The position numbers and the translations under genes are program-made. This document shows, piece by piece, positions 1 to 27,208 of a DNA stretch of 32,000 nt. Position 1 is the first letter of the stretch. Each line of letters starts with the position of its first letter. The stretch lies in NCBI GenBank assembly GCA_964573345.1, contig CAZNJP010000002.1, positions 9,916 through 41,915 of the forward strand, in the 5' to 3' direction. Below the pieces are notes generated by a model. The model was not told the DNA's origin. It worked only from the letters and a program-made list of their open reading frames with translations, and did not search any database. Source of the DNA: an uncultured Syntrophobacter sp. (GTDB lineage: Bacteria > Desulfobacterota > Desulfofervidia > Desulfofervidales > DG-60).

Positions 1-932
1 AAAAAGAGTTGGTTTGTGGTAAATCTGGAAATATCTCCTTAAGAGTGAATAATGACAAGATTCTTATTACTGCCCATGATGCCTATTTAGGGTTTTTAGA
101 AAAAGATGACATTTTATTGATAGATATAAATGGTAAAATTATAGAAGGAAAAAAAGGACCTACCTCTGAAAAAGCACTTCATCTGAAGATTCATAAGGAA
201 TTCCCTGAAAAAAAGGTAATAATTCATGCCCATTCCCCTTATACTGTGTATTTCTTTCACTTTTTCCAAACCCTTGAACCTGTAAGTTTTGAGGAAAGGT
301 TTTATTTGGGAAGGCTAAGAGCTATTCCACAATACACACCTACGGTGATAGATGTAGTACCAGTAACAGATGCCTTAAAGACCAGTAATATTGTGGTGTT
401 AAAAGATCATGGAGTAGTGGCTATTGGAGAAGATTTTAAATCCACCTTTTCATTGATTGAGCTTCTAGAGACACAGGCAAGGCTAAATCTGCTTGCTCAT
501 TCTATAATGCCAAGGCCAGAAATCGGTTTTATACAAAAAGAAATCTTGAAGAAATATAAGCTCTTTTCTAAAGAGCATATGTCTTGTTTAGTTGATTTGG
601 TGAATAGCGACGAAGTTGCTCAATCCTTAGGAGAGAAATTTAATCTTACTACCATCCTGGGCATAAAAGAAACAGGCGGAAAAGAAGTATTTTGTTTTCA
701 TTATGACCATGGAAAGATTATAAAACTTACCAAAAATAAAGAAGAAAATGCAGAATTTATCATTTCTGGAAAAAGGGATGTATGGAGTAAAATCTTTAAT
801 AGAGAAATTGACCCATTTGTGGCTTCAACCCAGGGAAAGATAAAAATAAAAGGCGATTTTAATAAGCTTTCTCAGTGGTTTCCTGTGTTTGAAAGGACTT
901 TTAAGCTCTGGGGAGAAATTTCTGTGGAGTGA
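1..932 (+). CDS. Class II aldolase/adducin-domain protein with C-terminal SCP2-like lipid-binding domain (5' end outside window)
   Basis: ORF 9..932 remains open upstream to base 3 (KELVCGKSGNISLR), so the N-terminus is cut by the window edge. GKSGNISLR and IIHAHSPY fit class II aldolase (FucA/MtnB-type) motifs. The C-terminal ~100 aa (FIISGKRDVWSKIF...QGKIKIKGDFNKLSQW) resemble the SCP2 sterol-carrier fold. Confidence 0.7.
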   Translation, partial: KELVCGKSGNISLRVNNDKILITAHDAYLGFLEKDDILLIDINGKIIEGKKGPTSEKALHLKIHKEFPEKKVIIHAHSPYTVYFFHFFQTLEPVSFEERFYLGRLRAIPQYTPTVIDVVPVTDALKTSNIVVLKDHGVVAIGEDFKSTFSLIELLETQARLNLLAHSIMPRPEIGFIQKEILKKYKLFSKEHMSCLVDLVNSDEVAQSLGEKFNLTTILGIKETGGKEVFCFHYDHGKIIKLTKNKEENAEFIISGKRDVWSKIFNREIDPFVASTQGKIKIKGDFNKLSQWFPVFERTFKLWGEISVE

Positions 933-936
933 GAAT

Positions 937-2361
937 ATGAAAGCATATCAGATGTATATTGGAGGTGAATTCAGGGATAGGGAACAAAAAATCATGGTAG
1001 AAAATCCAGCTACTGAAGAGGTATTTGCTCAGATACCTCAAGCTAATAAAGAAGATTTAGGATTTTGCCTGAAAAAGGCCAAATTGGCTCAGAAAGAATG
1101 GGGAAATACACCATTTAAACAAAGAAAGGGATTATTGTCAGGTATTTCTAAGGTTATTCTTGAAAATTTAAGAACCTTAGCAGATTTAGAGACAAATGAG
1201 ATAGGGAAACCTATAAAAGAGACACTTCTTGTTGACATTCCCTTATCAGCCCAGTGTTTTGAGTATTATGCCTCATTAGTTGACACTATTCACTCACCTA
1301 TCTCTGTTAATCAAGATACTATAGATATTGTTCAATATGTGCCATTTGGCAGTGCCGGGGTGTTTCTACCTTATAATACACCCTTAATGATATTTGGTTT
1401 TAGTTGTGCCGCGGCCTTGGCAGCAGGAAATGCTGTAATTATAAAGCCTTCAGAATATGGGAGTTTATCTTTGTTAGAAGTGGCAAAATACCTAAATGAA
1501 CTGGATTTTCCAAAAGGACTAATTAATGTCATTACTGGGGAAGGTTCTGTCATTGGAAAGGCATTGGCCTCATCAGATATAGATATCATTTCTTATACTG
1601 GTTCAAGTACTCATTTTAAAAAGATGTTTAAGGAGATGAAACCAAAAAAGGTAATCTGTGAATTGGGTGGAGCCAATCTGGCCATTGTATTTTCTGATGC
1701 AGACTTGGAAGAGGCAACAGAAAATATCATAGCCTCATCTTTTATGAAACAAGGTCAAATGTGTATTGGTACAAGTATAGCTCTAATCGAAGAAGGTATT
1801 TATGAAAATTTTTTAGAAACACTGATAAAAAAGACAGAAAAAATAAAGGTAGGAGACCCTACATCGGCTTTAACTGGTATGGGGCCATTGAGATCAAAAT
1901 TGCATTTAGATGGACTTATAAATAAAATTGAAGGGTTAAAAGCAGAAGGTGCAAGAATTCTTATAGGAGGAGAGAAAATAGATACTAGGGGTTATTTTTA
2001 TGCCCCTACTATTATAGAGGTTAAAAAACTAGTTTATGAGGAGTTCTTTTCTCCAGTATTGTTAGTAAAGGCATTCAAGAAAGAAGAAATAGAAGACTTA
2101 ATATCAGATAACCCTACAGGATTGGCATTACAGATTTGGTCAAAAGACATAAAAAAGGCAAAAAAAATAGCCTTAAGTGTCCATTGTGGAGCGGTATGGA
2201 TAAATACATTTGCCCAGATGGATGCCTCAATACCATTTGGTGGATTTAAAAGGAGTGGCTGGGGGCGTGAATTAGGAAAATGGGGCCTATTTGAATACCT
2301 TCAGCCAAAGCATATAGGAATTTCTTTTAAGAAAAGCCCAGTTTCAGGCTGGTTTGGGTGA
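937..2361 (+). CDS. NAD(P)+-dependent aldehyde dehydrogenase family protein
   Basis: ORF 889..2361. Start placed at ATG 937 (GGAG 926-929, 5 nt after the upstream stop). ALDH hallmarks are VICELGGAN (catalytic Glu region) and KQGQMCIGTS (catalytic Cys), at full ALDH length. Confidence 0.9.
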   Translation: MKAYQMYIGGEFRDREQKIMVENPATEEVFAQIPQANKEDLGFCLKKAKLAQKEWGNTPFKQRKGLLSGISKVILENLRTLADLETNEIGKPIKETLLVDIPLSAQCFEYYASLVDTIHSPISVNQDTIDIVQYVPFGSAGVFLPYNTPLMIFGFSCAAALAAGNAVIIKPSEYGSLSLLEVAKYLNELDFPKGLINVITGEGSVIGKALASSDIDIISYTGSSTHFKKMFKEMKPKKVICELGGANLAIVFSDADLEEATENIIASSFMKQGQMCIGTSIALIEEGIYENFLETLIKKTEKIKVGDPTSALTGMGPLRSKLHLDGLINKIEGLKAEGARILIGGEKIDTRGYFYAPTIIEVKKLVYEEFFSPVLLVKAFKKEEIEDLISDNPTGLALQIWSKDIKKAKKIALSVHCGAVWINTFAQMDASIPFGGFKRSGWGRELGKWGLFEYLQPKHIGISFKKSPVSGWFG

Positions 2362-2429
2362 TTTATAAGAGGAAAAAGAACAAAAAACTCGTACTATAAA
2401 CCATAGGTTTACGCAGATAAATGTAATTA

Positions 2430-2452
2430 TTCACCGCAGAGTGCGCAGAGAG
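2430..2452 (+). repeat. Copy of the ttcaccRcaRag REP-like family (family A)
   Basis: aattattcaccgcagagtgcgcagagag resembles aataattcaccgcaaagagcgctgag at 21141 and both arms of the palindrome at 20454-20518. Confidence 0.6.
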
Positions 2453-2476
2453 TCAGGAAAATTATTAACGCTCAAG

Positions 2477-2514
2477 GCTCTAAACTCAAAGCTCTAGAGT
2501 TTTGAGTTTAGAGC
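2477..2514. repeat. 38-nt near-perfect palindrome
   Basis: gctctaaactcaaa g ctctagag t tttgagtttagagc. The 14-nt arms are exact reverse complements and the centre ctctagag is itself palindromic. Confidence 0.7.
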
Positions 2515-2543
2515 TAAACAATAACACTTTCTCTGTACCCTCC

Positions 2544-2643
2544 CCGCCTGCTAACGCCTGAGCGTAGCGACCCGCCCGCCTCGCAAGCGAGCTTGCTCGC
2601 GTTGCGGGCAGGTGGCGGGCAGGTGCGGTAATATCTTTTTTTT
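2544..2643 (+). terminator. GC-rich compound hairpin followed by T8: probable intrinsic terminator of the aldolase/ALDH unit (GC-rich palindrome family B)
   Basis: cccgcctgcta...cccgcccgcctcgcaagcgagcttgctcgcgttgcgggcaggtggcgggcaggtgcgg has nested complementary arms (cgcaagcgag/ctcgcgttgcg; cccgcc/ggcggg; ccgcctgc/gcaggtgcgg). It is followed by taatatc + tttttttt (about 2636-2643). It stands out in otherwise AT-rich DNA. Confidence 0.45.
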
Positions 2644-2742
2644 CAATCCAAGACTTTGACACGGTCCTGGATTACACCATTTTATGCTTGATATTTTTTT
2701 AGAATTATATTAAAAGTTTTGTTAAAATTTTACTATTAAAAA

Positions 2743-5064
2743 ATGAGGACTGAAAAGCTAGCTAGTTTTATAGTAAGGCATAAATATCTATTTTTAATCC
2801 TACCTATTATATTGAGTATTGCCTCTTTTTATTTCATTAAGGATATAAAGATTGTCACTAGAAGCACAGATTTTATGCCTACAAGGCATCCATTTGTTGA
2901 GGTTCAAGGAGAATTAAATAAACACTTTGGGGGTCTGAATCGAGTAAATATTGCCATTGAGGTAAATAAAGGTAATATTTTAAATCCTGTTACCTTAGAA
3001 AAGCTCTATGGAATATTTGATGAGCTTTCTTATCTAGATGAGATAAATCCAAGGCGTATCCTTTGCCTTTTCTCTCGGCAGATAAAGCATATTGAAATAC
3101 ATAAAGAAGGTTTTGATGTCAGGAGGCTTTTAAGGGATATCCCCGAGACCAAAGAAGGGTGGCGGGCATTAAGAAAAAAAATTTTAAGAAATCCCTTAGT
3201 TTATGGCCCACTTGTCTCAAAGGACTTTAAGGCCACTTTAATCCAGGCAGGATTTAAAGAAGAAGTCCCTTCTAAGATCATCTATGAAAAAGTAAATGAA
3301 ATCATCAGAAAATATAAAGACAAAAATCATCATATTTATGTAAGTGGACGTCCTACATTAGAAGGTTATATCGAAACCCATTCACATTTTATCCTTTATA
3401 TATTTGCTATTAGCTTAATTATCACTTTTCTTTTATTATTTCTGGCCTTCAACAAAAACAAAAGGGCCATTATCTTACCATTTTTTTCAGGCATTATGTC
3501 TGTTCTCATAGGTCTTTCTATTCTTAGGATTTTAAATTATCCCATAAATCCATTTACTATCCTCATCCCATTTATGGTCTTTATTGTTACCCTTAATCAC
3601 TCTGTTCAGTTTATGCAAAGATACTTTGAAGCCAGCAAAAAATATAGCAATAAAGAAGAAGTTTCTAAAGAGGTATTAGTTGGTTTATTAAATCCTGTAA
3701 GGGCCTCAATTTTTACAGATTTTTTGGGATTTGCCTCTCTTTTTCTTATTCCTATACCATCTATAAGAGGCATTGCTATTTTAGGGGGATTTGGCATATT
3801 AAGCCTCTTTTTGACTTTAGTAGGATTTATGCCAGCTTGTTTTGCTATTTTCCCGCTTCCTAAATTTAAAAAGGATAAAGAAAATATAGGATTTGCTTAT
3901 AGATTTTTGGAAAAATTAGCTGGTATTTATACAAAAAAGAGAAATATTGCTATCATTATGTGTTCTTTTATAGCTGTTTCAATCCTTTCACTTTATGGGA
4001 TTAAGCACATTACAGTGGGTGAAACAGAGCCAGGTACTTCTATTCTTTATAGAGATGCCCCTTACAATATAGCAGAAAGAAAGATCAATCATTATTTTTC
4101 TGGTTCAAATCCCTATTATATATTGGTAAAAGGAAAGAAAGAAAATGCCTTAGTAAGGGCAGATGTAATGAAGGAGATGGATGGGCTTGAGACTTATCTG
4201 AGAGAAAATTCCCCTGCTGCAGGATATGGCCTTTCTTTGGCTGATTATATGAAATTAATGAACTTGGTAATGTTTGGAGGAGATAAAAGTCATTTCTACA
4301 TTCCAGATAATGATAAAGCCATAGGTGAATATCTATTTCTCTATGAAAACAATGCATTTCCAGGGACATTTTCTGGCCTTTTTGATTATTCCCATAAATA
4401 TGCCAATATCCGTTTAGACCTAAAAGACTGTAAAGGGAGCACTATAAAAGAAATTATTTCAGAGACAAAAGATTGGATAAAAGAACACCATAAGACAAAA
4501 TGGGTAGATTTTGAATTTGCAGGTGGGCCAATTGGCATTTTAGGTGCCACCAATGACATTATGAAAGAAGGTCTGTTATTAAATATGGCTGTTCTTTCCA
4601 TACTTATTATTCTTCGTGTCTGCCTTGCATTACGTTCCATAGTTGGAGGGCTTTTGCTTTTTATTCCTCTGCTTTTTAGCATTATCTTAACCTTTGGTAG
4701 CTTTGGTATCTTAAATATCCCATTTACTCTATCTACCCTGCCTGTAGCTGCCATGGGAGCCGGGCTTGGCATTGATTATAGTATCTATTTGGCCTCAAGA
4801 GTCAAAGAAGAAACAAAAAGACAAAAATCTTTAGATAAGGCTATATTTTGTGCAGTGACTACCTGTGGTATGGCAGTATTATTTGTTGGCACTATACTCT
4901 CTATTGGTAGCTTTTCTTGGATATTTTCTAATCTAAAACTTCAGGCAAAGTTAGGAGGTGTCTTTGCATATTTAAAATTTTTAAACATGCTTTCTGCCTT
5001 AATCCTTTTGCCTACATTTTTACTTTTAATAAAACCAAAATTTTTGTTTAAGGAGGGAAAATGA
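2743..5064 (+). CDS. MMPL/RND-superfamily exporter (HpnN-like architecture)
   Basis: 773 aa. The order is TM1, a ~190-aa soluble loop, a TM cluster (aa ~205-375), a TM, a second ~190-aa loop, and a second TM cluster (aa ~610-765). This is the pseudo-twofold MMPL/RND layout. The stop overlaps the next start (ATGA 5061-5064). Confidence 0.85.
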   Translation: MRTEKLASFIVRHKYLFLILPIILSIASFYFIKDIKIVTRSTDFMPTRHPFVEVQGELNKHFGGLNRVNIAIEVNKGNILNPVTLEKLYGIFDELSYLDEINPRRILCLFSRQIKHIEIHKEGFDVRRLLRDIPETKEGWRALRKKILRNPLVYGPLVSKDFKATLIQAGFKEEVPSKIIYEKVNEIIRKYKDKNHHIYVSGRPTLEGYIETHSHFILYIFAISLIITFLLLFLAFNKNKRAIILPFFSGIMSVLIGLSILRILNYPINPFTILIPFMVFIVTLNHSVQFMQRYFEASKKYSNKEEVSKEVLVGLLNPVRASIFTDFLGFASLFLIPIPSIRGIAILGGFGILSLFLTLVGFMPACFAIFPLPKFKKDKENIGFAYRFLEKLAGIYTKKRNIAIIMCSFIAVSILSLYGIKHITVGETEPGTSILYRDAPYNIAERKINHYFSGSNPYYILVKGKKENALVRADVMKEMDGLETYLRENSPAAGYGLSLADYMKLMNLVMFGGDKSHFYIPDNDKAIGEYLFLYENNAFPGTFSGLFDYSHKYANIRLDLKDCKGSTIKEIISETKDWIKEHHKTKWVDFEFAGGPIGILGATNDIMKEGLLLNMAVLSILIILRVCLALRSIVGGLLLFIPLLFSIILTFGSFGILNIPFTLSTLPVAAMGAGLGIDYSIYLASRVKEETKRQKSLDKAIFCAVTTCGMAVLFVGTILSIGSFSWIFSNLKLQAKLGGVFAYLKFLNMLSALILLPTFLLLIKPKFLFKEGK

Positions 5065-5939
5065 AAAAGATTTTATCTGTAATGGCTATTTTACTTTTAT
5101 TGGCTAGCTTCTGTTGGGCTGAAACTATTTGTCATCCACCAAAGATACCTGAAAAACCTACTGCTGATGAATTAATGAAGGCCTGTTTTGATATAAAGTT
5201 TACCAGATATGCTGATGATGCATACTATCCACATGTTGAAACTGTCTTCATAGATAAATCAGGTTTTAAGAGACACAAAAAGGCAGTAAGAAAGAGGATT
5301 GTCTTGCATGGAGAAAGAGGGCTTGATTATAAGGATGTGATTTGGCTTACCTATCCTGAATATACAAAGGGATTAGCAGTCCTTACCTGGGCCTATATGG
5401 ATGTAAATAAGGAAAATGATATCTGGATCTGGCTGCCTGCCTGGAAAAAGATAAGGAAGGTTTCTCAGACAGAAGAGGATGATTCATTTATGGGAAGTGA
5501 ATTTACAGTAGAAGAGATTACTACCAGAAGATATGGCTATGAAACATATAAACTTATAGGTGAAGATGTATTTTCTGGCTATAAAAGTGGACTGGATGGA
5601 AAGACCTATTGTAAAGGGGTTCCTTGTTACAAAGTGGAGTGCTATCCCAAAAAGAAGCGCTGGTATTATGAAAAAAGGATTGTGTGGATAGATAAAAAGA
5701 CAGGGGCATCTGTTTATGAGGAATATTATGACAAAAAAGGTAGAAAATATAAGGAAATCTTTCGCACTTATGTTTATCCAGAAAATGGCTGCTACTATCC
5801 CATTTTTTATGAGGTCTATAACTTCAGGACAGGCCATAGGGATATTATTGTAATAGGTGGTAAAGCCGAACCTACCTTTAATATGGGTATAAGTGAGAGG
5901 TTCTTTACAGAAAAGACATTAGAAAGGCAAGAATGGTAA
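5061..5939 (+). CDS. LolA-like outer-membrane lipoprotein-sorting protein (DUF1329/PF17131-type), paralog 1
   Basis: Signal peptide MKKILSVMAILLLLASFCWA. The block DIWIWLPAWKKIRKVSQTEEDDSFMGSEFTVEEI matches the W.YLP...RRI...F.GSDF.YED signature of LolA-like proteins that accompany MMPL exporters. Confidence 0.75.
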   Translation: MKKILSVMAILLLLASFCWAETICHPPKIPEKPTADELMKACFDIKFTRYADDAYYPHVETVFIDKSGFKRHKKAVRKRIVLHGERGLDYKDVIWLTYPEYTKGLAVLTWAYMDVNKENDIWIWLPAWKKIRKVSQTEEDDSFMGSEFTVEEITTRRYGYETYKLIGEDVFSGYKSGLDGKTYCKGVPCYKVECYPKKKRWYYEKRIVWIDKKTGASVYEEYYDKKGRKYKEIFRTYVYPENGCYYPIFYEVYNFRTGHRDIIVIGGKAEPTFNMGISERFFTEKTLERQEW

Positions 5940-6011: not shown

Positions 6012-6896
6012 ATGATGAAGAGAATTTTATTTGTAACAACCGTCTTAGTTTTATTTTTTATAAGCTTCTGTTGGGCTGAAACTATTTGTCATCCACCTAA
6101 GATATCTGAAAAACCCACTGCAGATGAACTTATGAAGGCATGGTTTGATATTAAGTTCACCAGATATGCAGATGATGTGACATATCCATACATACCTCTG
6201 TTAATGATAGACAAATCAGGCTTTAAAAGAAAAAAGGTAGCTGCAAGAAAAAGGATTGTCTTACATGGAGAAAGGGGACTTGATTATAAGGATGTGATTT
6301 CAATCACATATCCTGAATACACAAAAGGTCTAGCCATACTTACCTGGGCCTATATAGATGTAAACAAAGAAAATGATATCTGGCTCTGGCTCCCTGCCTG
6401 GAAAAAGATAAGGAAGGTCTCCCAGGCAGAAGAGGATGATTCATTTATGGGAAGTGAATTTACAGTAGAAGAAATTACCACCAGAAGATATGGCTATGAA
6501 ACCTATAAACTTATAGGAGAAGGTATATTTCCTGGCTATAAAAGTGGGGGGGATGGGAAGACCTATTGTGAAGGGGTTCCTTGTTACAAAGTGGAGTGCT
6601 ATTCCAAAAAGAAGCCCTGGTATTATGAAAAAAGGATTATCTGGATAGACAAAAATACAGGGGTTTCTGTCTATGAAGAGTATTATGATAAAAAAGGTAA
6701 AAGATTCAAAGAAATCTTCCATTATTATGTCTATCCAGAAAATGGCTGCTACTATCCCATTTTTTATGAGGTCTATAACTTCAGGACAGGCCATAGGGAT
6801 ATTATTGTAATAGGTGGTAAAGCCGAACCTACCTTTAATATGGGTATAAGTGAGAGGTTCTTTACAGAAAAGACATTAGAAAGGCAAGAATGGTAA
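6012..6896 (+). CDS. LolA-like outer-membrane lipoprotein-sorting protein, paralog 2 (tandem duplicate)
   Basis: 294 aa, identical to the 5061..5939 product at most positions by eye. The last 167 nt are nucleotide-identical to paralog 1. Confidence 0.75.
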   Translation: MMKRILFVTTVLVLFFISFCWAETICHPPKISEKPTADELMKAWFDIKFTRYADDVTYPYIPLLMIDKSGFKRKKVAARKRIVLHGERGLDYKDVISITYPEYTKGLAILTWAYIDVNKENDIWLWLPAWKKIRKVSQAEEDDSFMGSEFTVEEITTRRYGYETYKLIGEGIFPGYKSGGDGKTYCEGVPCYKVECYSKKKPWYYEKRIIWIDKNTGVSVYEEYYDKKGKRFKEIFHYYVYPENGCYYPIFYEVYNFRTGHRDIIVIGGKAEPTFNMGISERFFTEKTLERQEW

Positions 6897-7007
6897 AAGG
6901 CATAGGTAAAGGTAAACGATACACGATACAAGATATAAAAATGACAAATGACAAAGCTCAAATGCCAAATGAAGCCCAGAATTCAAAGTAAAAAGTAAAA
7001 GGGCTAG

Positions 7008-7070
7008 GGTTACGAAGCCCGTATCGAAGCCCGTCAGACGTAAAACGATACGGGCATCGTTGCCGTAACC
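7008..7070 (+). repeat. ORF-less hairpin copy of the element that carries the four-helix-bundle gene at 8686-9188
   Basis: The left arm ggttacgaagcccgtatcgaagcccgt (7008-7034) is identical to 8686-8712. The right arm aaaacgatacgggcatcgttgccgtaacc (7042-7070) matches 9160-9188 at 25 of 29 positions. The arms pair as ggttacg/cgtaacc and gcccgtatcg/cgatacgggc. Confidence 0.75.
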
Positions 7071-7139
7071 AATTGACAAGAATTTTGGATTTCAATTGAG
7101 ATTTGGGATTTGAGATTTTTAAAAGGGAGGAGGGAAATT

Positions 7140-8663
7140 ATGAAAAAATGGGTAATTGTTTTGTTGGTGGTCTTTTTACCAAGTTTAGGTCAGGCAACTA
7201 TTTTTAAAAAGGGTCCAGTTACAGTAGAGGGTTATATTAAAAACGAAACTGGCGTTTATCCTGATTTTACAAAGTGGATCAAGATTATGAACATCGTTGA
7301 TTTAAGGGGACAGTATAAACCAAGACCATGGCTCTCATTCTATGGCCATCTCTATAAGTATTGGGACCATGCCTATAATCAGGAGGATGAATATGCACCT
7401 GCTCATCAGGCTATGTATACAAATAGAGAGACCTGGCAGGGAATCTCCTGGGTAAGGGAACTTTATGTAGACTTCTTCTCTGACTATTTGGATATCAGGG
7501 CAGGAAAACAAATGGTTACCTGGGGCACAGCGGATGGTATAAGGGTCTTAGATAAATATGTAAATCCATTGGACTGGCGAGAATTTAGCCTTAAACCTTG
7601 GAATGAGATAAAAATTCCCCTTTGGACATTAAAAATGGAATTTCAACCTACATTAAATGGCACATTTCAATTTTTATTGATACCAGACTTTGAGCCAGAC
7701 TATTGGCCAGCGGTAGGGGCACCTTTTGCTATTGGTACAAGTAAAGAAGGGGCTAAGATGATGGAGGATTTAAAGGATTTCAGCCGCACAGGTATCGCAG
7801 GGGTCCCCTTTGATTATCGAATAATCTCTAAAGAAGGAAGGCCTGGCGAAAAGTGGGGAAACTCAAAGTTTGGTGTAAGGTGGAGGGATATTTTAGGTAA
7901 CTTTGAATATACCTTAAATTATATTTATTCCTGGGAAACTGAATCGCCGGAAAGAATTACTATTGTGGATACAAGCACTATGGATCCACAAAAGCTTAGG
8001 CAACTTTGTATGCGTATGCATATGAGCCCTGGGGAGCTGCAAAATTTCTTACATTCAAATGGAATTGCTCCCCCTGGTAGCACTTTTCGTTTTACCCAGA
8101 AATATCACCGTATAAATGTCTGGGGAGGCACATTTTCAAAGACATTTGTAGGTCGCTATCCGGCTTTTATAAATTGGTTTTTTAAAGGTTTGACCTTAAG
8201 AGGTGAATTTGCCTATGTAAGAAATGATTATAGAGCTTATCGTACCAAGGATGGTAGATTTGGGTGGGCACCAACAGATTGTTACAACTATGTCATTGGT
8301 TTGGATAAATGGGTTGTTAGCAATTGGTTGGCTAGCTTTCAGTTCATTCAACTTATCAATTCAAAAAAGGATGTAAATGGACAAAAATTTGTATGGCCAT
8401 CAGCCGGGCCTATGGATAAAGTAGAGACCATATTGACGTTAAAAGTCTCTACAGATTTCTTTCATGAGAGGTTTAAACCCGATATCTTGATACTTTATGG
8501 AGATGATAATGATTGGAGAATAAGCCCCTCCTTTCCCTTTGAATGGGGAGACCATGTAACCACTACTTTAGGTGCACATATTTTAGAGGGGAAGGAAAGC
8601 GGCCTTCATGGTGAATTTAATGACAGTAAAGAAATATACTTTGAGGTGAAATATAGTTTTTAA
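7140..8663 (+). CDS. DUF1302-like outer-membrane beta-barrel protein
   Basis: ORF 7110..8663. Start moved to ATG 7140 (GGGAGGAGG upstream). Signal peptide MKKWVIVLLVVFLPSLGQA. The N-terminal VEGYIKNETGVY and the C-terminal ...YFEVKYSF (terminal Phe) fit an OM barrel. The genomic partners (LolA-like + MMPL) are typical of DUF1302. Confidence 0.6.
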   Translation: MKKWVIVLLVVFLPSLGQATIFKKGPVTVEGYIKNETGVYPDFTKWIKIMNIVDLRGQYKPRPWLSFYGHLYKYWDHAYNQEDEYAPAHQAMYTNRETWQGISWVRELYVDFFSDYLDIRAGKQMVTWGTADGIRVLDKYVNPLDWREFSLKPWNEIKIPLWTLKMEFQPTLNGTFQFLLIPDFEPDYWPAVGAPFAIGTSKEGAKMMEDLKDFSRTGIAGVPFDYRIISKEGRPGEKWGNSKFGVRWRDILGNFEYTLNYIYSWETESPERITIVDTSTMDPQKLRQLCMRMHMSPGELQNFLHSNGIAPPGSTFRFTQKYHRINVWGGTFSKTFVGRYPAFINWFFKGLTLRGEFAYVRNDYRAYRTKDGRFGWAPTDCYNYVIGLDKWVVSNWLASFQFIQLINSKKDVNGQKFVWPSAGPMDKVETILTLKVSTDFFHERFKPDILILYGDDNDWRISPSFPFEWGDHVTTTLGAHILEGKESGLHGEFNDSKEIYFEVKYSF

Positions 8664-8685
8664 TCCAAAGGGATAAAAAGGTTAA

Positions 8686-9188
8686 GGTTACGAAGCCCGT
8701 ATCGAAGCCCGTTAAATAGTTGGAGAATTAAAATCGAAAATAGAATAAAACAGAAAAATCCAATAAGGAGTTTTCATGATCTAGAAGTTTATAGAAATAC
8801 TTATGAGGCTTCAATTATAGTTATGACACAGATAGTTCCAAAGTTACCCCAATCTGAAAAGTATGATTTAAAAGATCAATTGGCTCGTTCCTGTAAAGCC
8901 ATACCAAGGCTAATTGCTGAAGGTTATGCTAAGAAGCATCAGAAACACGGGTTTCAGAAATACCTTGACGATGCTATGGGAGAATGCAACGAGACAGTGG
9001 TTAGTCTAAGTCACTGCAGGGATATTTATTCCCAATATGTTGATCCGAAAACATGCGATAAGCTAATAGATGTTTATGATAAATCAGGTAGGCAGCTCTA
9101 TAATTTATCTAAAGCATGGACTGATTTTAAGACTAAGGGGAAACAATTAACGTAACCCGAAAACGACACGGGCATCGTAAACGTAACC
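8686..9188 (+). other. IVS-like structured element: two complementary arms enclosing the four-helix-bundle ORF
   Basis: Left arm 8686-8712 and right arm 9160-9188 are the same arms that sit only 7 nt apart at 7008-7070. Here they are separated by 447 nt containing the ORF. Confidence 0.65.
8823..9155 (+). CDS. Four-helix-bundle protein (23S rRNA intervening-sequence protein family, TIGR02436-like)
   Basis: SEKYDLKDQLARSCKAIPRLIAEGYAKK matches the E.FGLTSQLRRAA.SIP.NIAEGY core of the family. Family similarity continues upstream in frame (SFHDLEVYRNTYEASIIV, 8769-8822) where no ATG/GTG/TTG exists, so the true 5' end is uncertain. Confidence 0.8.
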   Translation: MTQIVPKLPQSEKYDLKDQLARSCKAIPRLIAEGYAKKHQKHGFQKYLDDAMGECNETVVSLSHCRDIYSQYVDPKTCDKLIDVYDKSGRQLYNLSKAWTDFKTKGKQLT

Positions 9189-9199
9189 GATAGACAGAG

Positions 9200-9838
9200 A
9201 TGCGTTGCCGCTTATTTAATTTAATTATACCCCGTTTTCTTCCTTCGTTTCTTTATGCACTCTATGGAAGTTGCAAAATAGAAACCAGGGGAGAGGAATA
9301 TTTAAAGGAAATTTCAGGTCCTGTTATCTATGCAGGCTGGCATGGAATGCTTCCTTTTATCCTTTATTTTGGTAGGAAGGTGAAAATGGCGACTATGGTG
9401 AGCCAAAGTGAGGATGGAGGATTAGTTGCGCCTGTTTTTGAAAGATTTGGCTTGGAGGTAGTAAGGGGCTCTAGTGGAAAAGGAGGGGCAAGTGCCATTA
9501 AGCAGCTTTATAAGCTTTTAAAGAAGGGGCATAATGTGGGCTTTGCTGTAGATGGCTCAAGGGGCCCTGCCAGAAAGGTGCAAGGGGGAATTTTATTTTT
9601 GGCACGTTATAGTGATAGTCCAATTATTCCCATAAATGCAGTTTATAGCCATAGCCTTAAATTCAATAGCTGGGATAAGATGGAATTGCCACTTCCCTTT
9701 TCCAAAGTACTTCTGTTTTATGGCCCTCCTATTTATGTACCAAAGGATGTAAGCGAGCAAGAATTTGAGGCAATAAGATTAAATTTAGAAAAGACACTTT
9801 ATCAACTTTATAGGGAAGGGAGTGAAATAGTGAGGTAA
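9200..9838 (+). CDS. DUF374 / lysophospholipid-acyltransferase-like protein
   Basis: VIYAGWHGML, VSQSEDGGLVAPVFERFGLEVVRGSSGKGG, AVDGSRGPARKVQGG and SWDKMELPLPFSKV follow the DUF374 pattern along the whole length. Confidence 0.8.
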   Translation: MRCRLFNLIIPRFLPSFLYALYGSCKIETRGEEYLKEISGPVIYAGWHGMLPFILYFGRKVKMATMVSQSEDGGLVAPVFERFGLEVVRGSSGKGGASAIKQLYKLLKKGHNVGFAVDGSRGPARKVQGGILFLARYSDSPIIPINAVYSHSLKFNSWDKMELPLPFSKVLLFYGPPIYVPKDVSEQEFEAIRLNLEKTLYQLYREGSEIVR

Positions 9839-9840
9839 AA

Positions 9841-10124
9841 GATTGGTGAATGGGTGAACTTGGTCATTCCCTGTAGCTTGCTAGAGGGTTACCTTTACTC
9901 ATATCTTCCCTCCCCTGGTGGGAGGGATTGAGGGAGGGGGTAAAAAGGGCTTTTTCACCCCCATCCCCCATCAAGGGGGAGGAATTTGTGGGTAAAAAGT
10001 TAGCCCCTTTGGGAGGGGGCTAGGATGAGGGCAAGAAAAGGGTATACCTTATGATACCCTAGAATTTAGGGATAAATTGCCAAAGACTTCTTTAGGAAAG
10101 ATTAAGAAGATGGAGTTGACTTAG
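9841..10124 (+). pseudogene. Decayed relic of a third acyl-CoA (ANL) ligase gene
   Basis: 10044-10124 translates to IPYDTLEFRDKLPKTSLGKIKKMELT-stop. In the aligned 21 residues, 13 are identical to the C-terminus of the 12454..13920 ligase (LVEFKKDLPKTPLGKVKKLEL). 9853-9900 retains GELGHSL and, after a frame change, EGYLY (gagggttaccttta, identical to 11437-11450) corresponding to GDLGYLDEEGYLY. It contains stops and frameshifts, has no 5' part, and its middle is replaced by G/C-tract hairpins. Confidence 0.6.
9908..10021. repeat. Cluster of four G/C-tract hairpins
   Basis: ccctccc-ctggt-gggaggg (9908-9926). gggggtaaaaagggctttttcaccccc (9936-9962). ccccc-atcaa-ggggg (9965-9979). agcccc-tttggga-ggggct (10002-10021). 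Confidence 0.65.
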
Positions 10125-10263
10125 ATAAGAATAGTTAAATAGTTGAACCAAAAATTGGAGAATCGTTGAATGGTTAAATCGTAGAATTATGGAACCGTCA
10201 AACCGAATCAACGAATTAACTAATTAACGAGTTTACTAATTTGGATAATTAGGGGGTCATAAA

Positions 10264-14077: not shown

Positions 14078-15301
14078 ATGGTTTCTAAAGCGAAGATTGC
14101 TATTGTAGGTGGGGGGATTGCTGGTTTGTCTTGTGCTTACTTTCTGAAAAAGCAAGGTCTGGATGCAGTTATCTATGAAAGAAAAAGAGAAGTAGGAGGT
14201 AGGTTTTCTACCTTGAAAATCGATGGAGTTTATATTAATCGGGCCGCTTTGATGTTTTCTAAAAAGCTTAATCCCTGTTTTACTTCCCTTATTCATGAAT
14301 TAGAAATTCCTCACAGGGAGATAGATAAGTCAAAGTTTGCAGTGCAGATTGGGGATAAAATTATTCCTTTAAACAGGCAAGGACTTCTTGAAAGTGGATT
14401 GTTCAATTTAGAAGAAATCAAGTTGTGGGGGAAATTACAGGAGTTAGCACAATCGCTCAAATTTGATTATGGTGAGCCTGATGAACGATTACTTAAGTGG
14501 CATGAGATGTCCCTTTATGATTTTTGTAAAAAAGAGATGAAATTTACCGATAATATGATAAATTACCTGGCTCAACTTTATGCTAGCTTTCAGTATGTGG
14601 AACCACATGAGCTTGCCGCAGATAAAGGACTATTTTCTATTTCCTACTCTATAACACCTACCTTTACGCCTATAAAAGGTATGGGAGAAGTAGCATTGGA
14701 GTTAAAGAAAAGACTAGGGGATGAAAACCAAATAAATACCCATGTAACTGAGGTGCATTATGAGCCAGGAAAAGGCTTTATGTTAAAAGTGAAAAGAGAA
14801 GATAGATCTCCTACATTTGAAGGGCCTTATGAGTATTGTGTTTTTGCTACTGGCGGGAGGAGTGTAAAAAATATTATGCCAGAGGTGGATTTTGAGGTCC
14901 AGGCAGCTAAGACCAGGGGGTTTATCATAGAGGCCATCTGCCCCCAGTATCGTCCATATGAGCTAATAATCTTTCCTAAAGTAGACAATAAGCATGGTGT
15001 CCATGGTGGTGAAATGCAACATCTGCCTGATGGTCGTTCTATTTGCGCTATCCTTCTCTATCGCAGTGATGCAGATTTAGGGGCAGTTTTTAAGAAATAT
15101 AAAATCATTGAGCGCCTTGGTTGGTCACCTGCCCTTGGGGTAATGCCACCAGGGGGAAAGATTGTAGATGTTGCTACTAATGTAAAAAATGCTTTTGTGG
15201 TAGGTGACTTCTTTCGTTTTCCAAATCTTGAATCTTGTGTTTATACAGCCAAGAAGGTTGCTTCTATCATTGCCAAAGGCAAATTAGAGAAGAAAAAATG
15301 A
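14078..15301 (+). CDS. FAD/NAD(P)-binding oxidoreductase (amine-oxidase / phytoene-desaturase-like fold)
   Basis: N-terminal dinucleotide fold KIAIVGGGIAGLSCAYFLKKQGLDAVIYERKREVGGR. C-terminal FVVGDFF FAD-anchoring motif. Confidence 0.8.
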   Translation: MVSKAKIAIVGGGIAGLSCAYFLKKQGLDAVIYERKREVGGRFSTLKIDGVYINRAALMFSKKLNPCFTSLIHELEIPHREIDKSKFAVQIGDKIIPLNRQGLLESGLFNLEEIKLWGKLQELAQSLKFDYGEPDERLLKWHEMSLYDFCKKEMKFTDNMINYLAQLYASFQYVEPHELAADKGLFSISYSITPTFTPIKGMGEVALELKKRLGDENQINTHVTEVHYEPGKGFMLKVKREDRSPTFEGPYEYCVFATGGRSVKNIMPEVDFEVQAAKTRGFIIEAICPQYRPYELIIFPKVDNKHGVHGGEMQHLPDGRSICAILLYRSDADLGAVFKKYKIIERLGWSPALGVMPPGGKIVDVATNVKNAFVVGDFFRFPNLESCVYTAKKVASIIAKGKLEKKK

Positions 15302-16023
15302 AGATTTTAGGGATATGTGGGACAAATAAAAGAAAAAATAAAAAATCTGCCAGTGATTACTTTCTTAGAAAGGCCCTGGAAGCCACTGAAGAACTGGGGG
15401 CAAAGACAGAATTAATTAGACTTATAAATTATCGTATAAAACCATGTTTGGCATGTAATTTCTGCATTTGCGGCAAGTTATGTCCTTTGCTCGAAGATCC
15501 AAAAGATGATGCAAAAGAAATCTTTGAAAAGATAGATGAGGCAGAAGGTATAATCTTTTCCTTCCCTGTTTACGCATATCAGACACCTGCCGTTGTCATT
15601 AATTTACTTCAGAGGGTAAGGCCTTTTCATGAGCTTGAAAGGGCAAAGGCAACAGGCTTAGAAATTAAGGCCGTAAAAAGCAATCCCTTTTCTGGAAAAC
15701 CTATAGGAAATTTGGCAGTAGCGGCCGCTATTGGGTTAGAAGGGGCTTTATTTGGACCGCTCCATATCTTGAAGGCATTGGGGGCAACACCAGTTGCCTG
15801 TGCAGGTATTTCTCTTTTGGACCCAGAGATAAAAAATATTTATAGCATAAACGGTAAATTCTGTGTTCCTAATAAAGAAATAAAGGCATTTTTTGATAGG
15901 GATTTTCCAAGTTATGAAGAAAATGAATGTGCTATTGATATGGCGCGCTCAGTAGGGAAGTGGGTCTATATGGCTTACAACTCTGAGGTATTTCAGAGGA
16001 TAAAATATCGCACCAAACTTTAG
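15298..16023 (+). CDS. Iron-sulfur flavoprotein / NADPH-dependent FMN reductase-like protein
   Basis: ORF 15235..16023. Start placed at ATG 15298, overlapping the upstream stop (ATGA). Flavodoxin-like MKILGICGTNKRK...GIIFSFPVYAYQTP. The compact Cys cluster CLACNFCICGKLC contains the CX2CX2CX5C motif of Isf-type 4Fe-4S flavoproteins. Confidence 0.7.
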   Translation: MKILGICGTNKRKNKKSASDYFLRKALEATEELGAKTELIRLINYRIKPCLACNFCICGKLCPLLEDPKDDAKEIFEKIDEAEGIIFSFPVYAYQTPAVVINLLQRVRPFHELERAKATGLEIKAVKSNPFSGKPIGNLAVAAAIGLEGALFGPLHILKALGATPVACAGISLLDPEIKNIYSINGKFCVPNKEIKAFFDRDFPSYEENECAIDMARSVGKWVYMAYNSEVFQRIKYRTKL

Positions 16024-26195: not shown

Positions 26196-27104
26196 ATGAT
26201 TTTTGATGCCCATACACACTGGCTTCCAAAAGAGATTATTGAAAATGCCCAGTTTTTTTCCAATGTTTGGGGTGATATTGAAAGGCAATTGGTCATAATG
26301 GATGAATTTAAGATTGACAAAGCACTTTTGGTCTATCCTACAACTGATGCTTATAAAAAGATGGGTCTAAAGGAAGTAGCAAGGGTTTATAATAATTCCA
26401 TTGCTGAAATAGTAAATAAATACCCTGAAAGACTTGTTGGGGCAGCCATCTTACCCATAGATGACCCAAAGGAGATAATAAAAGAATTTGACCGTGCGAT
26501 TGAAGTATTGGGATTTAAGGCCATTTCTCTTGCCACAAGTTTTGATGATATGTATTTAGATGATGAAAAATTTTATCCACTTTATGAAAAGGCAGAGGCA
26601 TTAAGCATTCCTATTTTTGTCCATCCACAAATCATAAACCCGATAGGTTATGAGCGGGTAAAAGACCCTTTGCTTACCCCGGTGATTGAATTTGTGTTTG
26701 ATACCACGATGTGCATTGGGAAATTGATGGTAGCAGGCATATTTAAAAAATTTCCAGATTTAAAATTTGTCTTTGCCCACTTAGGGGGGGTGATACCATT
26801 TATTAAAGAAAGATTTGACAGCATATACAAAATGCTTAGAGAAAGAAATATAGTCAAAGACCTCTTTGCCCTCCCTAGCGAATATTTGAAACAGATATAT
26901 GTAGATACAAGTGGGGCTGTATCCCATTCTGCCCTTATGGGCACTATTGAGATGGTAGGGATAGAGCATATTTTATGGGGTAGCGATTACCCTGGAAATC
27001 CCAATATATCAGCATCGATCAAGGCCATAGAGGAATTAAAGATACCTGAAGAAGAAAAGAAAAAAATATTGGGTGAAAATATGGTTAGATCGTTGATTCG
27101 TTAA
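26196..27104 (+). CDS. Amidohydrolase_2 (PF04909) family metal-dependent hydrolase/decarboxylase
   Basis: FDAHTHW (HxH), VHPQ, FAHLGG and WGSDYP metal ligands in TIM-barrel order. The family includes non-oxidative aromatic-acid decarboxylases. Confidence 0.8.
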   Translation: MIFDAHTHWLPKEIIENAQFFSNVWGDIERQLVIMDEFKIDKALLVYPTTDAYKKMGLKEVARVYNNSIAEIVNKYPERLVGAAILPIDDPKEIIKEFDRAIEVLGFKAISLATSFDDMYLDDEKFYPLYEKAEALSIPIFVHPQIINPIGYERVKDPLLTPVIEFVFDTTMCIGKLMVAGIFKKFPDLKFVFAHLGGVIPFIKERFDSIYKMLRERNIVKDLFALPSEYLKQIYVDTSGAVSHSALMGTIEMVGIEHILWGSDYPGNPNISASIKAIEELKIPEEEKKKILGENMVRSLIR

Positions 27105-27208
27105 ATCGAAAATTGGTTAGATCGTTAAATTTAAGAAGAAGCACTTAACGATGAACGGTTTTACTATTTGACGAATTGACGAATTAACTATTTAACAAGT
27201 ATTTTCAG

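Follow-up and report, generated by a model that had tools for sequence, protein, structure and literature searches.

Why would one operon of protein-coding genes carry the same hairpin twice, once closed over a few nucleotides and once around a whole gene? The question is raised by a stretch of 32,000 nucleotides from an uncultured Syntrophobacter sp. (positions 9,916 to 41,915 of contig CAZNJP010000002.1, assembly GCA_964573345.1), which we call the window; positions given without the name of a locus or genome refer to it. A gene for a four-helix-bundle protein of the family PF05635 lies there between two complementary arms, and the same arms recur 1.6 kb upstream without an open reading frame (ORF) between them. 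Intervening sequences (IVSs) with a PF05635 ORF are found in the 23S rRNA of Leptospira, Coxiella burnetii and Xanthomonas. An initial annotation of the window, made from its letters alone, had drawn this parallel and suggested a mobile or processed RNA element. From our analysis, a selfish hairpin element of the IVS type is probably present at both loci, complete at one and internally deleted at the other, and transcribed with its host operon. That the element itself is an IVS-type hairpin element, one complete and one deleted copy of which were inserted in the operon, we hold with high confidence.

Two copies of one hairpin in the window

The window contains exactly two occurrences of the left arm, GGTTACGAAGCCCGTATCGAAGCCCGT, at 7008-7034 and 8686-8712; all 27 nucleotides are identical, and no occurrence was expected by chance (100 shuffles of the window). 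Its similarity extends to 39 nt at 92% (6996-7034 against 8674-8712). The right arms, at 7042-7070 and 9160-9188, are identical in 25 of 29 positions, and 84% identity is kept over an extended repeat of 37 nt. Between the arms lie 7 nt in the upstream copy (7035-7041) and 447 nt in the downstream copy (8713-9159); we refer to the two as the empty and the filled copy, respectively. These coordinates, identities and spacings, and the stop codon within the motif CGTAACC, are all as first annotated. Only two repeat pairs were found in the element region and both were the arms, which consist of GGTTAC hexamers and the in-phase core GAAGCC-CGTATC. The filled element is a unit of about 0.5 kb with the PF05635 gene in the loop of a long imperfect hairpin (Table 1).

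The initial annotation had asked for both copies to be folded. The empty copy folded into a single long hairpin, imperfect and topped by a small stem (-34.6 kcal/mol, z = -5.4, 0 of 200 shuffles as good), and in the filled copy (542 nt) the arms paired around the ORF in both the minimum free energy and the centroid structure (z = -2.3). The empty hairpin was also considered as an intrinsic terminator and was rejected by the terminator check. There was no Rfam match at gathering or permissive thresholds and no PADLOC match. No terminator-like site and no surplus of promoter-like sites was seen in the region 6800-9400.

The ORF in the loop matched PF05635 (E = 7e-18, 65.2 bits, cut-off 33.8), TIGR02436 'four helix bundle protein' (E = 1e-15, 57.5 bits, cut-off 24) and the PDB entry 2GSC (E = 1.6e-5). 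Its sole canonical start is the ATG at 8823, giving 110 aa, the version annotated by gene callers. However, the family match begins upstream of this ATG, and a start there would drop about 30 N-terminal residues that are conserved in homologues. When 18 homologues were aligned, the annotated start of nine fell exactly at the ATC at 8733 of the window and that of the others 2-3 codons downstream. The frame is open, the invariant residues are all kept, and ATC stands at the homologues' start position; to judge from the sequence, the window copy would either start on ATC or be losing its start. In most homologues CGTAACC has a partner, GGTTACG or GGTAACG, just 5' of the start codon. The window copy lacks this left partner and has ATC for a start codon, and it may be in decay like the ORF of the Coxiella IVS.

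Table 1. Positions of the hairpin elements and adjoining features in the window
Feature	Position	Strand	Remarks
Enlarged spacer, LolA-like to DUF1302 gene	6897..7139	+	Holds the empty hairpin and 7-nt tandem repeat blocks
ORF-less (empty) hairpin element	6995..7078	+	Repeats D1, D2, I1; fold
Left arm, empty copy	7008-7034	+	Outer GGTTAC unit and core ACGAAGCCCGTATCG at 7012-7026
Right arm, empty copy	7042-7070	+	After 7-nt spacer; core CGATACGGGCATCGT at 7046-7060
DUF1302-family host gene	7140..8663	+	Pfam; between the two hairpin elements
Left arm, filled copy	8673..8712	+	GGTTAA-GGTTAC units, core ACGAAGCCCGTATCG at 8690-8704, repeated GAAGCCCGT
Shine-Dalgarno-like GGAGA (putative)	8722..8726	+	6 nt before ATC 8733
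PF05635/TIGR02436 ORF	8733..9155	+	140 codons if read from ATC 8733; stop TAA 9153-9155
Inner right motif CGTAACC	9151..9157	+	Contains stop TAA 9153-9155
Right arm, filled copy	9160..9196	+	Core CGACACGGGCATCGT at 9164-9178, then CGTAACC
DUF374 host gene, lysophospholipid-acyltransferase-like	9200..9838	+	Pfam; start 4 nt past the end of the extended right-arm repeat (9196)

Conserved arms around homologous genes

The window protein has 3,439 homologues, the best 120 of which are 61-81% identical to it. A metagenome scan gave 80 related loci, 79 of them non-redundant, and rRNA motifs were found in none of the 80. The flanks of the genes were uniform. Upstream, GGTTAC/GGTAAC units are followed by ACGAAGCCCGTATCG and by more units, often with GGTTACGT right before the start codon; downstream, ACG-TAA-CC is followed by a short spacer, CGAAACGGGCATCGT and AACCGTAACC. 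The left arm core was present in 70 of the 79 non-redundant loci, the right in 59 and both in 55, where the cores were found by fuzzy match to a consensus, a procedure that inflates the apparent conservation and excludes loci without arms. A stricter motif scan of the loci returned 45 left-right pairs that enclose a gene; loops of 430-443 nt were the most frequent. The same kind of arms, and a stop codon within ACGTAACC, were seen for two homologues on long contigs, of which one lies between fabZ and fabF in an Omnitrophota genome and the other beside a Wzy-type gene.

The arms are complementary as well as conserved. In an ungapped alignment of 36 arm pairs 84.4% of the cells were paired, compared to 24-43% with the partner column slid. 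Changes on both sides were observed for 12 of the 23 base pairs, and the covariation score of 0.152 (0.088 in shuffles) was reached by 0 of 500 shuffles. A variant arm class, AGGAAGCCGGTATGG with CCAAACCGGCTTCCT, differs by three matched double changes, and two A.A mismatches in the arm core are conserved. The closing helix measured 30-41 bp when the ORF was swapped for a tetraloop.

Could the hairpin belong to an ordinary host gene, as a translational operator that masks the ribosome-binding site and is perhaps bound by the gene's own product, with the empty copy left behind by a paralogue that was lost? The 24 nt preceding the start codon pair with the stop region of their own locus better than in cross-locus controls (p = 9e-4), and in locus L059 the fold pairs AAGGAG before the start with CTTCCT at the stop. 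Shine-Dalgarno-like motifs recur in the left-arm units and the protein sequence is well conserved, as an operator would have it. It would nevertheless leave several observations unexplained: the arrays of ORF-less units, the absence from the same operon in relatives, and the insertion in rRNA or between the tightly linked carA-carB, cmr2-cmr3 and cas6-cas4 (all described below). The window copy, moreover, has neither the inner stem nor a canonical start codon. We regard an operator as quite improbable.

The arm sequence also bears on whether the repeats are a local duplication or a chance similarity and nothing else. Only two copies of each arm exist in the 32 kb of the window, and a scan of 185,579 reference genomes with a 20-mer of the left arm gave 14 matches, 13 of which were chance-like within GC-rich coding sequence. 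The expectation of the initial annotation that the arms occur elsewhere was borne out insofar as they flank dozens of homologous genes on independent metagenome contigs; the exact arm is no genome-wide repeat in any reference genome. The arms travel with the gene subfamily of the window. With arm-flanked homologues and conserved pairing in independent loci, and with the same architecture recurring around unrelated arm sequences, a purely local duplication is refuted, and we give it practically no weight.

The remaining reference-genome match lay at 4560-4700 of locus L010, from a KSB1 metagenome-assembled genome (MAG), and was the only one to resemble a related repeat region (GAAGCCCGTATCGAAGCCCGG ... 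CCGATACGGGTATC). In a contig of 1,439 nt (L043) the sequence 5' of the gene recurs 3' of it, as in a tandem array or a circular assembly artefact.

Enclosed genes of other PF05635 subfamilies

A survey of other four-helix-bundle genes, as suggested in the initial annotation, found flanking complementarity in nine PF05635 genes that belong to other subfamilies and come from metagenome or MAG contigs, and in 10 of 13 PF05635 genes on plasmids of cultured cyanobacteria. The inverted repeats, cyanobacterial plasmids included, are 23-42 nt long, unrelated in sequence and built of short tandem units, mostly of 7 nt. RNAduplex on flanks of 150 x 110 nt was dropped, as shuffled flanks also reached about -40 kcal/mol, and motif-anchored and ungapped inverted-repeat scores were used instead. 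With a blind score for flanking inverted repeats these genes exceeded 260 control ORFs (Mann-Whitney p = 6e-15), and three of the top-scoring 'control' ORFs proved to be PF05635 genes. The 10 plasmid genes scored at least 12, which 4.6% of the controls reached. On pNPUN02 of Nostoc punctiforme PCC 73102 the arms around NPUN_RS35280 are at about 15603-15637 and 15219-15253 of NC_010632.1.

Three more distant PF05635 genes within the homologue loci were enclosed by repeats of 26-35 nt of unrelated sequence. Enclosure was also seen for three further genes of another subfamily, one of them upstream of a large acetyl-CoA-carboxylase-like gene. Another of the three, in a Planctomycetota MAG (L110, 9969-10365), sits between carA and carB with gaps of 17 nt; its left arm reaches over the last codons and the stop of carA, while the stop of the four-helix-bundle gene is covered by the right arm. 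The third, in a Parcubacteria MAG, adjoins an ORF-less hairpin. The unit period is most commonly 7 nt in the other families, 6 nt (GGTTAC) in the family of the window, and 8 nt in one to two families.

Among the cultured cyanobacteria the PF05635 gene sits among cas genes in L114 (1492-1851), L121 (701-1069) and L116 (1501-1857). It was found between cas6 and cas4 in Pseudanabaena galeata and Anabaena sp. 90, and between cas10/cmr2 and cmr3 in Picosynechococcus PCC 7003. This placement agrees with an earlier report for Pleurocapsa.

Comparison with the intervening sequences of 23S rRNA

Plasmid AZO_p2 of Azospirillum lipoferum 4B contains a PF05635 ORF within a 23S rRNA gene (Rfam large-subunit rRNA match 292-3345). 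The ORF lies about 1,150 nt into the large-subunit model, which we take to be near the reported helix-45 IVS site, and its product is 33% identical to the window protein. It is bordered by arms of 36 nt that are 86% complementary, 397 nt apart and composed of GAGGACG-type 7-nt units. The proposal of the initial annotation that the window element has the stem-plus-ORF architecture of an rRNA IVS fits this case well. The Coxiella IVS is 428 nt long, with a 28-bp stem containing one mismatch and one bulge, and carries tandem GACAGAT heptamers before the start codon of an ORF that is decaying and probably untranslated; RNase III cuts within the stem (PMC4990558).

The two kinds of element share a homologous ORF in the loop, complementary borders that form an extended stem, terminal inverted repeats of about 28-36 nt with few mismatches, a size of about 0.43-0.5 kb, short tandem units in the 5' part and an ORF that tends to lose its start signals (PMC4990558). 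They differ in their location, since the site of the window element is a spacer between the genes of a protein-coding operon and not an rRNA helix. The initial annotation had it so: no rRNA was detected in the window with Rfam, and the flanking genes, DUF1302 and DUF374, are protein-coding. Other differences are the ORF-less twin 1.6 kb away and the tandem arrays in other contigs. RNase III processing has been demonstrated for the rRNA IVSs, while for the window element we infer it by analogy; the helix length of 30-41 bp would be compatible with excision. Cleavage of an mRNA has consequences that cleavage of rRNA has not.

ORF-less copies, arrays and element-free relatives

ORF-less copies are not peculiar to the window. 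We counted 20 ORF-less left-right pairs in the homologue loci, with loops of 19-71 nt. Locus L080 contains, at 2718-3773, a tandem array of 119-nt hairpin units that are 94% identical, in the order two empty, one gene-carrying and then at least three empty. Of the ORF, the GTG start and the final ~17 nt are still present in the empty units; from this we infer an internal deletion between the purine-rich tracts at both ends of the ORF.

Imperfect inverted repeats beside a small ORF, regularly spaced repeats as in L080, and reports of PF05635 genes as CRISPR-associated (PMC3936711, PMC10910872) might suggest an integron cassette with an attC site or a CRISPR-like array. The window encodes no integrase, however, and the arm ends GGTTAC...GTAACC are the reverse of the attC order RYYYAAC...GTTRRRY, so the consensus is not fitted. 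The L080 units are 94% identical throughout and lack the variable spacers of a CRISPR array, and where the gene is found in cas operons it is placed between cas genes as any other insertion might be. Both possibilities are very remote. Arrays such as that of L080 could pass for CRISPR arrays, which might explain the reports of a CRISPR-associated PF05635 family.

Short intergenic inverted-repeat elements are known from Neisseria as Correia elements or NEMIS. They are co-transcribed, form hairpins and are reportedly cleaved by RNase III, with consequences for mRNA stability; they have no coding partner and show TA target duplications. Like them, the window element has terminal inverted repeats and several copies (two in the window, 20 ORF-less pairs and the arrays in the loci), and on our preferred reading the ORF-less window copy would work likewise. 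Unlike them, it exists in a gene-carrying version, and no target duplication was seen against element-free relatives. In REPtrons a RAYT gene, encoding an HUH tyrosine transposase, is flanked by inverted copies of a repeat that is also found gene-less, intergenic and clustered. The window element resembles them in all these features of its repeats, but its sole ORF encodes a PF05635 four-helix bundle without known catalytic motif and no HUH tyrosine transposase.

The Omnitrophota locus with a filled element in its fab operon (L023) has ORF-less hairpins in other spacers, at 97-166, 1180-1249 and 6071-6146. They belong to other families of 7-nt units (GTCAGCT, AGACCAG), and two of them flank plsX.

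Relatives without the elements were also found. In a MAG contig (L103, GCA_029933935.1) the gene order LolA-like, DUF1302, DUF374 is kept and the DUF374 protein is 80% identical to that of the window, while the two spacers measure 26 and 49 nt compared to 243 and 536 nt in the window. A second relative (L104) has 106 nt between DUF1302 and DUF374. With both elements absent from a relative of identical gene order, each must represent an insertion or a loss, which supports the initial suggestion of a mobile element. The element-free spacer of L104 (1395-1500) contains AAGACTCGAAAC...TTAACACTTAA, faintly like a decayed right arm; such a likeness would favour loss over gain at the DUF1302-DUF374 site.

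Action in the transcript or at the DNA level

Two features of the elements are strand-specific. The upstream neighbour was co-directional with the gene in 63 of 65 loci, compared to 110 of 131 background gene pairs (Fisher p = 0.005), and no such bias was found for the downstream neighbour in the same loci. In 20 of 21 cases with unrelated arm sequences the 5' arm was richer in purines than the 3' arm (p = 1e-5), and the left-arm units often contain AGGAG, GGAG, GAGG or AAGG. Both the co-direction and the purine polarity fit an action in the transcript. Altogether, IVS-type elements are widespread, with arms whose complementarity is maintained by paired changes, and lie mostly between ordinary genes, downstream of co-directional ones.

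If the element acts in this way, it would have no promoter or terminator of its own and would be transcribed by read-through from the host operon. The arms would pair in the RNA into a helix of about 30-40 bp with the whole cistron looped out, and in typical copies this helix would hide the ribosome-binding region by pairing it with that of the stop codon. RNase III would, on the analogy of the rRNA IVSs (PMC4990558), cut the helix, whereby the operon transcript would be split at the element and the four-helix-bundle message separated or silenced. The ORF-less copy would keep the helix only. We put forward this RNA-processing mechanism, with a looped-out cistron and the helix of the read-through transcript as a possible RNase III substrate, tentatively and as close to evenly balanced.

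Several observations weigh against it, or against parts of the explanation in which it stands, besides the fuzzy matching of the arm cores mentioned above. Among the stem cells that are not Watson-Crick pairs, G.U-type (30) and A.C-type (33) mismatches are equally common, and we therefore see no RNA-specific filtering of the stem; an excess of G.U would be expected if it were selected purely as RNA. The covariation could equally stem from paired binding sites, such as terminal inverted repeats, that co-evolve with the protein. Enclosure is not universal: a third flank class of about 10 loci (e.g., L074, L085, L093) and three of the 13 isolate plasmid genes (L114, L115, L117) showed no clear enclosure. 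The window copy lacks the inner stem, so the masking of the ribosome site in typical copies does not apply to it. Finally, the comparison with element-free relatives revealed neither a clean junction nor a target-site duplication, and the change may be either an insertion into the window lineage or a loss in the relatives.

Some of these points are what a mobile element acting at the DNA level would show. The arms would then be terminal inverted repeats, or hairpins of single-stranded DNA, recognised in transposition; the protein would be a mobility factor or a passenger, the ORF-less copies would resemble miniature inverted-repeat transposable elements, and the RNA hairpin would be a by-product. 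Presence and absence between relatives, the ORF-less copies and tandem arrays, and the equal frequency of G.U and A.C mismatches all agree with this, as do arms that are conserved across diverse metagenome contigs whose ORFs average ~68% DNA identity. Many homologues lie on very short contigs, as is the case with repeats, and a transposition origin of IVSs was proposed in the older literature (PMC4990558). Against it, domain searches found no transposase, integrase or reverse transcriptase among the window ORFs, nor was one regularly beside the gene in the loci examined, and no catalytic motif is known for the PF05635 family. Searches of viral contigs gave no relatives. The missing junction and target-site duplication tell against a DNA element too, and the strong tendency to share the direction of the upstream gene, together with a 5' arm rich in purines across unrelated arm families, points to a strand-specific constraint at the transcript level. 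We consider DNA-level mobility unlikely as a replacement for the IVS-type explanation, although a serious contender; it is compatible with it and may be its other half.

Avd of the diversity-generating retroelements belongs to the same protein superfamily as the window ORF and has been described as a pentamer of four-helix bundles that works with a reverse transcriptase and its RNA (PMC10053308). The window protein did not match the Avd models; a gene of another PF05635 subfamily matched bAvd (PF22296) and the PHROG 'Avd protein of DGR'. Unlike such a retroelement, the window has no reverse transcriptase, template or variable repeat, and neither have the loci examined. A broader speculation, which we consider improbable, is that PF05635 proteins and short-repeat hairpins constitute a self-contained class of mobile or self-propagating elements. 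A pentameric protein would recognise its own arm units, as RNA or DNA, and would bring about its copying or insertion, perhaps together with a reverse transcriptase borrowed from elsewhere, much as Avd works with one; the 23S rRNA IVSs would be only those members that had entered rRNA, and the ORF-less hairpins would be non-autonomous riders.

The host operon

The window, from a metagenome assembly (ENA ERZ27248455), has a G+C content of 38% and its large genes are all on the + strand, in a lipid or secondary-metabolite-like cluster. This includes an aldolase, an aldehyde dehydrogenase, an MMPL transporter, two LolA-like genes, DUF1302, DUF374, acyl-CoA ligases, ketosynthases, radical-SAM and B12 enzymes and a glycyl-radical enzyme. 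The LolA-like/DUF1329 lipoprotein genes just upstream of the elements (5061-5939 and 6012-6896) are near-identical and represent a recent tandem duplication.

Placed between the two elements, the DUF1302 gene has a right arm on its 5' side and a left arm on its 3' side, which are mutually complementary (inverted repeat I2). The right arm of the empty copy (7046-7070) is complementary to the left arm of the filled copy (8680-8704) over 25 nt at 84%, and this long-range pairing could loop out the whole DUF1302 cistron.

The spacer that holds the empty hairpin contains blocks of 7-nt tandem repeats at 6916-6935 (ACGATAC), 6939-6972 (AAATGAC), 6985-7000 (AAAGTAA) and 7096-7118 (TTGAGAT). Repeats of GGAATTTGGATT and TAGAGATT, similar to this mosaic, adjoin elements in L080 (2607-2650), L091 and L099. 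Other intergenic tandem repeats of short period occur in the window at 10204-10241 and 27084-27196; their units measure 8 nt and 16 nt (e.g., CGAATTAA and TTAACGAT).

Significance

The rRNA IVSs with an ORF and the wide scatter of PF05635 genes are already known, as are PF05635 genes in cas operons (PMC3936711) and their scoring as CRISPR-associated (PMC10910872). In the literature searched we found no description of free-standing PF05635 genes enclosed by inverted repeats in the manner of an IVS, of ORF-less copies and arrays that accompany such genes, or of a consistent polarity of the arms in PF05635 elements.

The finding bears on questions that have stood since the 1990s, namely the function of the very common PF05635 family and the origin of the rRNA IVSs. 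The architecture is present on plasmids of cultured cyanobacteria, e.g., Nostoc punctiforme PCC 73102, and RNase III processing and binding of the protein to the hairpin are thereby directly testable. For annotation, the hairpins are likely to be points of transcript processing or stability within operons. If the pattern holds, it would explain why PF05635 genes are found between cas genes and are scored as CRISPR-associated (PMC3936711, PMC10910872), and the rRNA IVSs would be only the conspicuous part of a far larger family, whose hairpin elements lie between ordinary genes.

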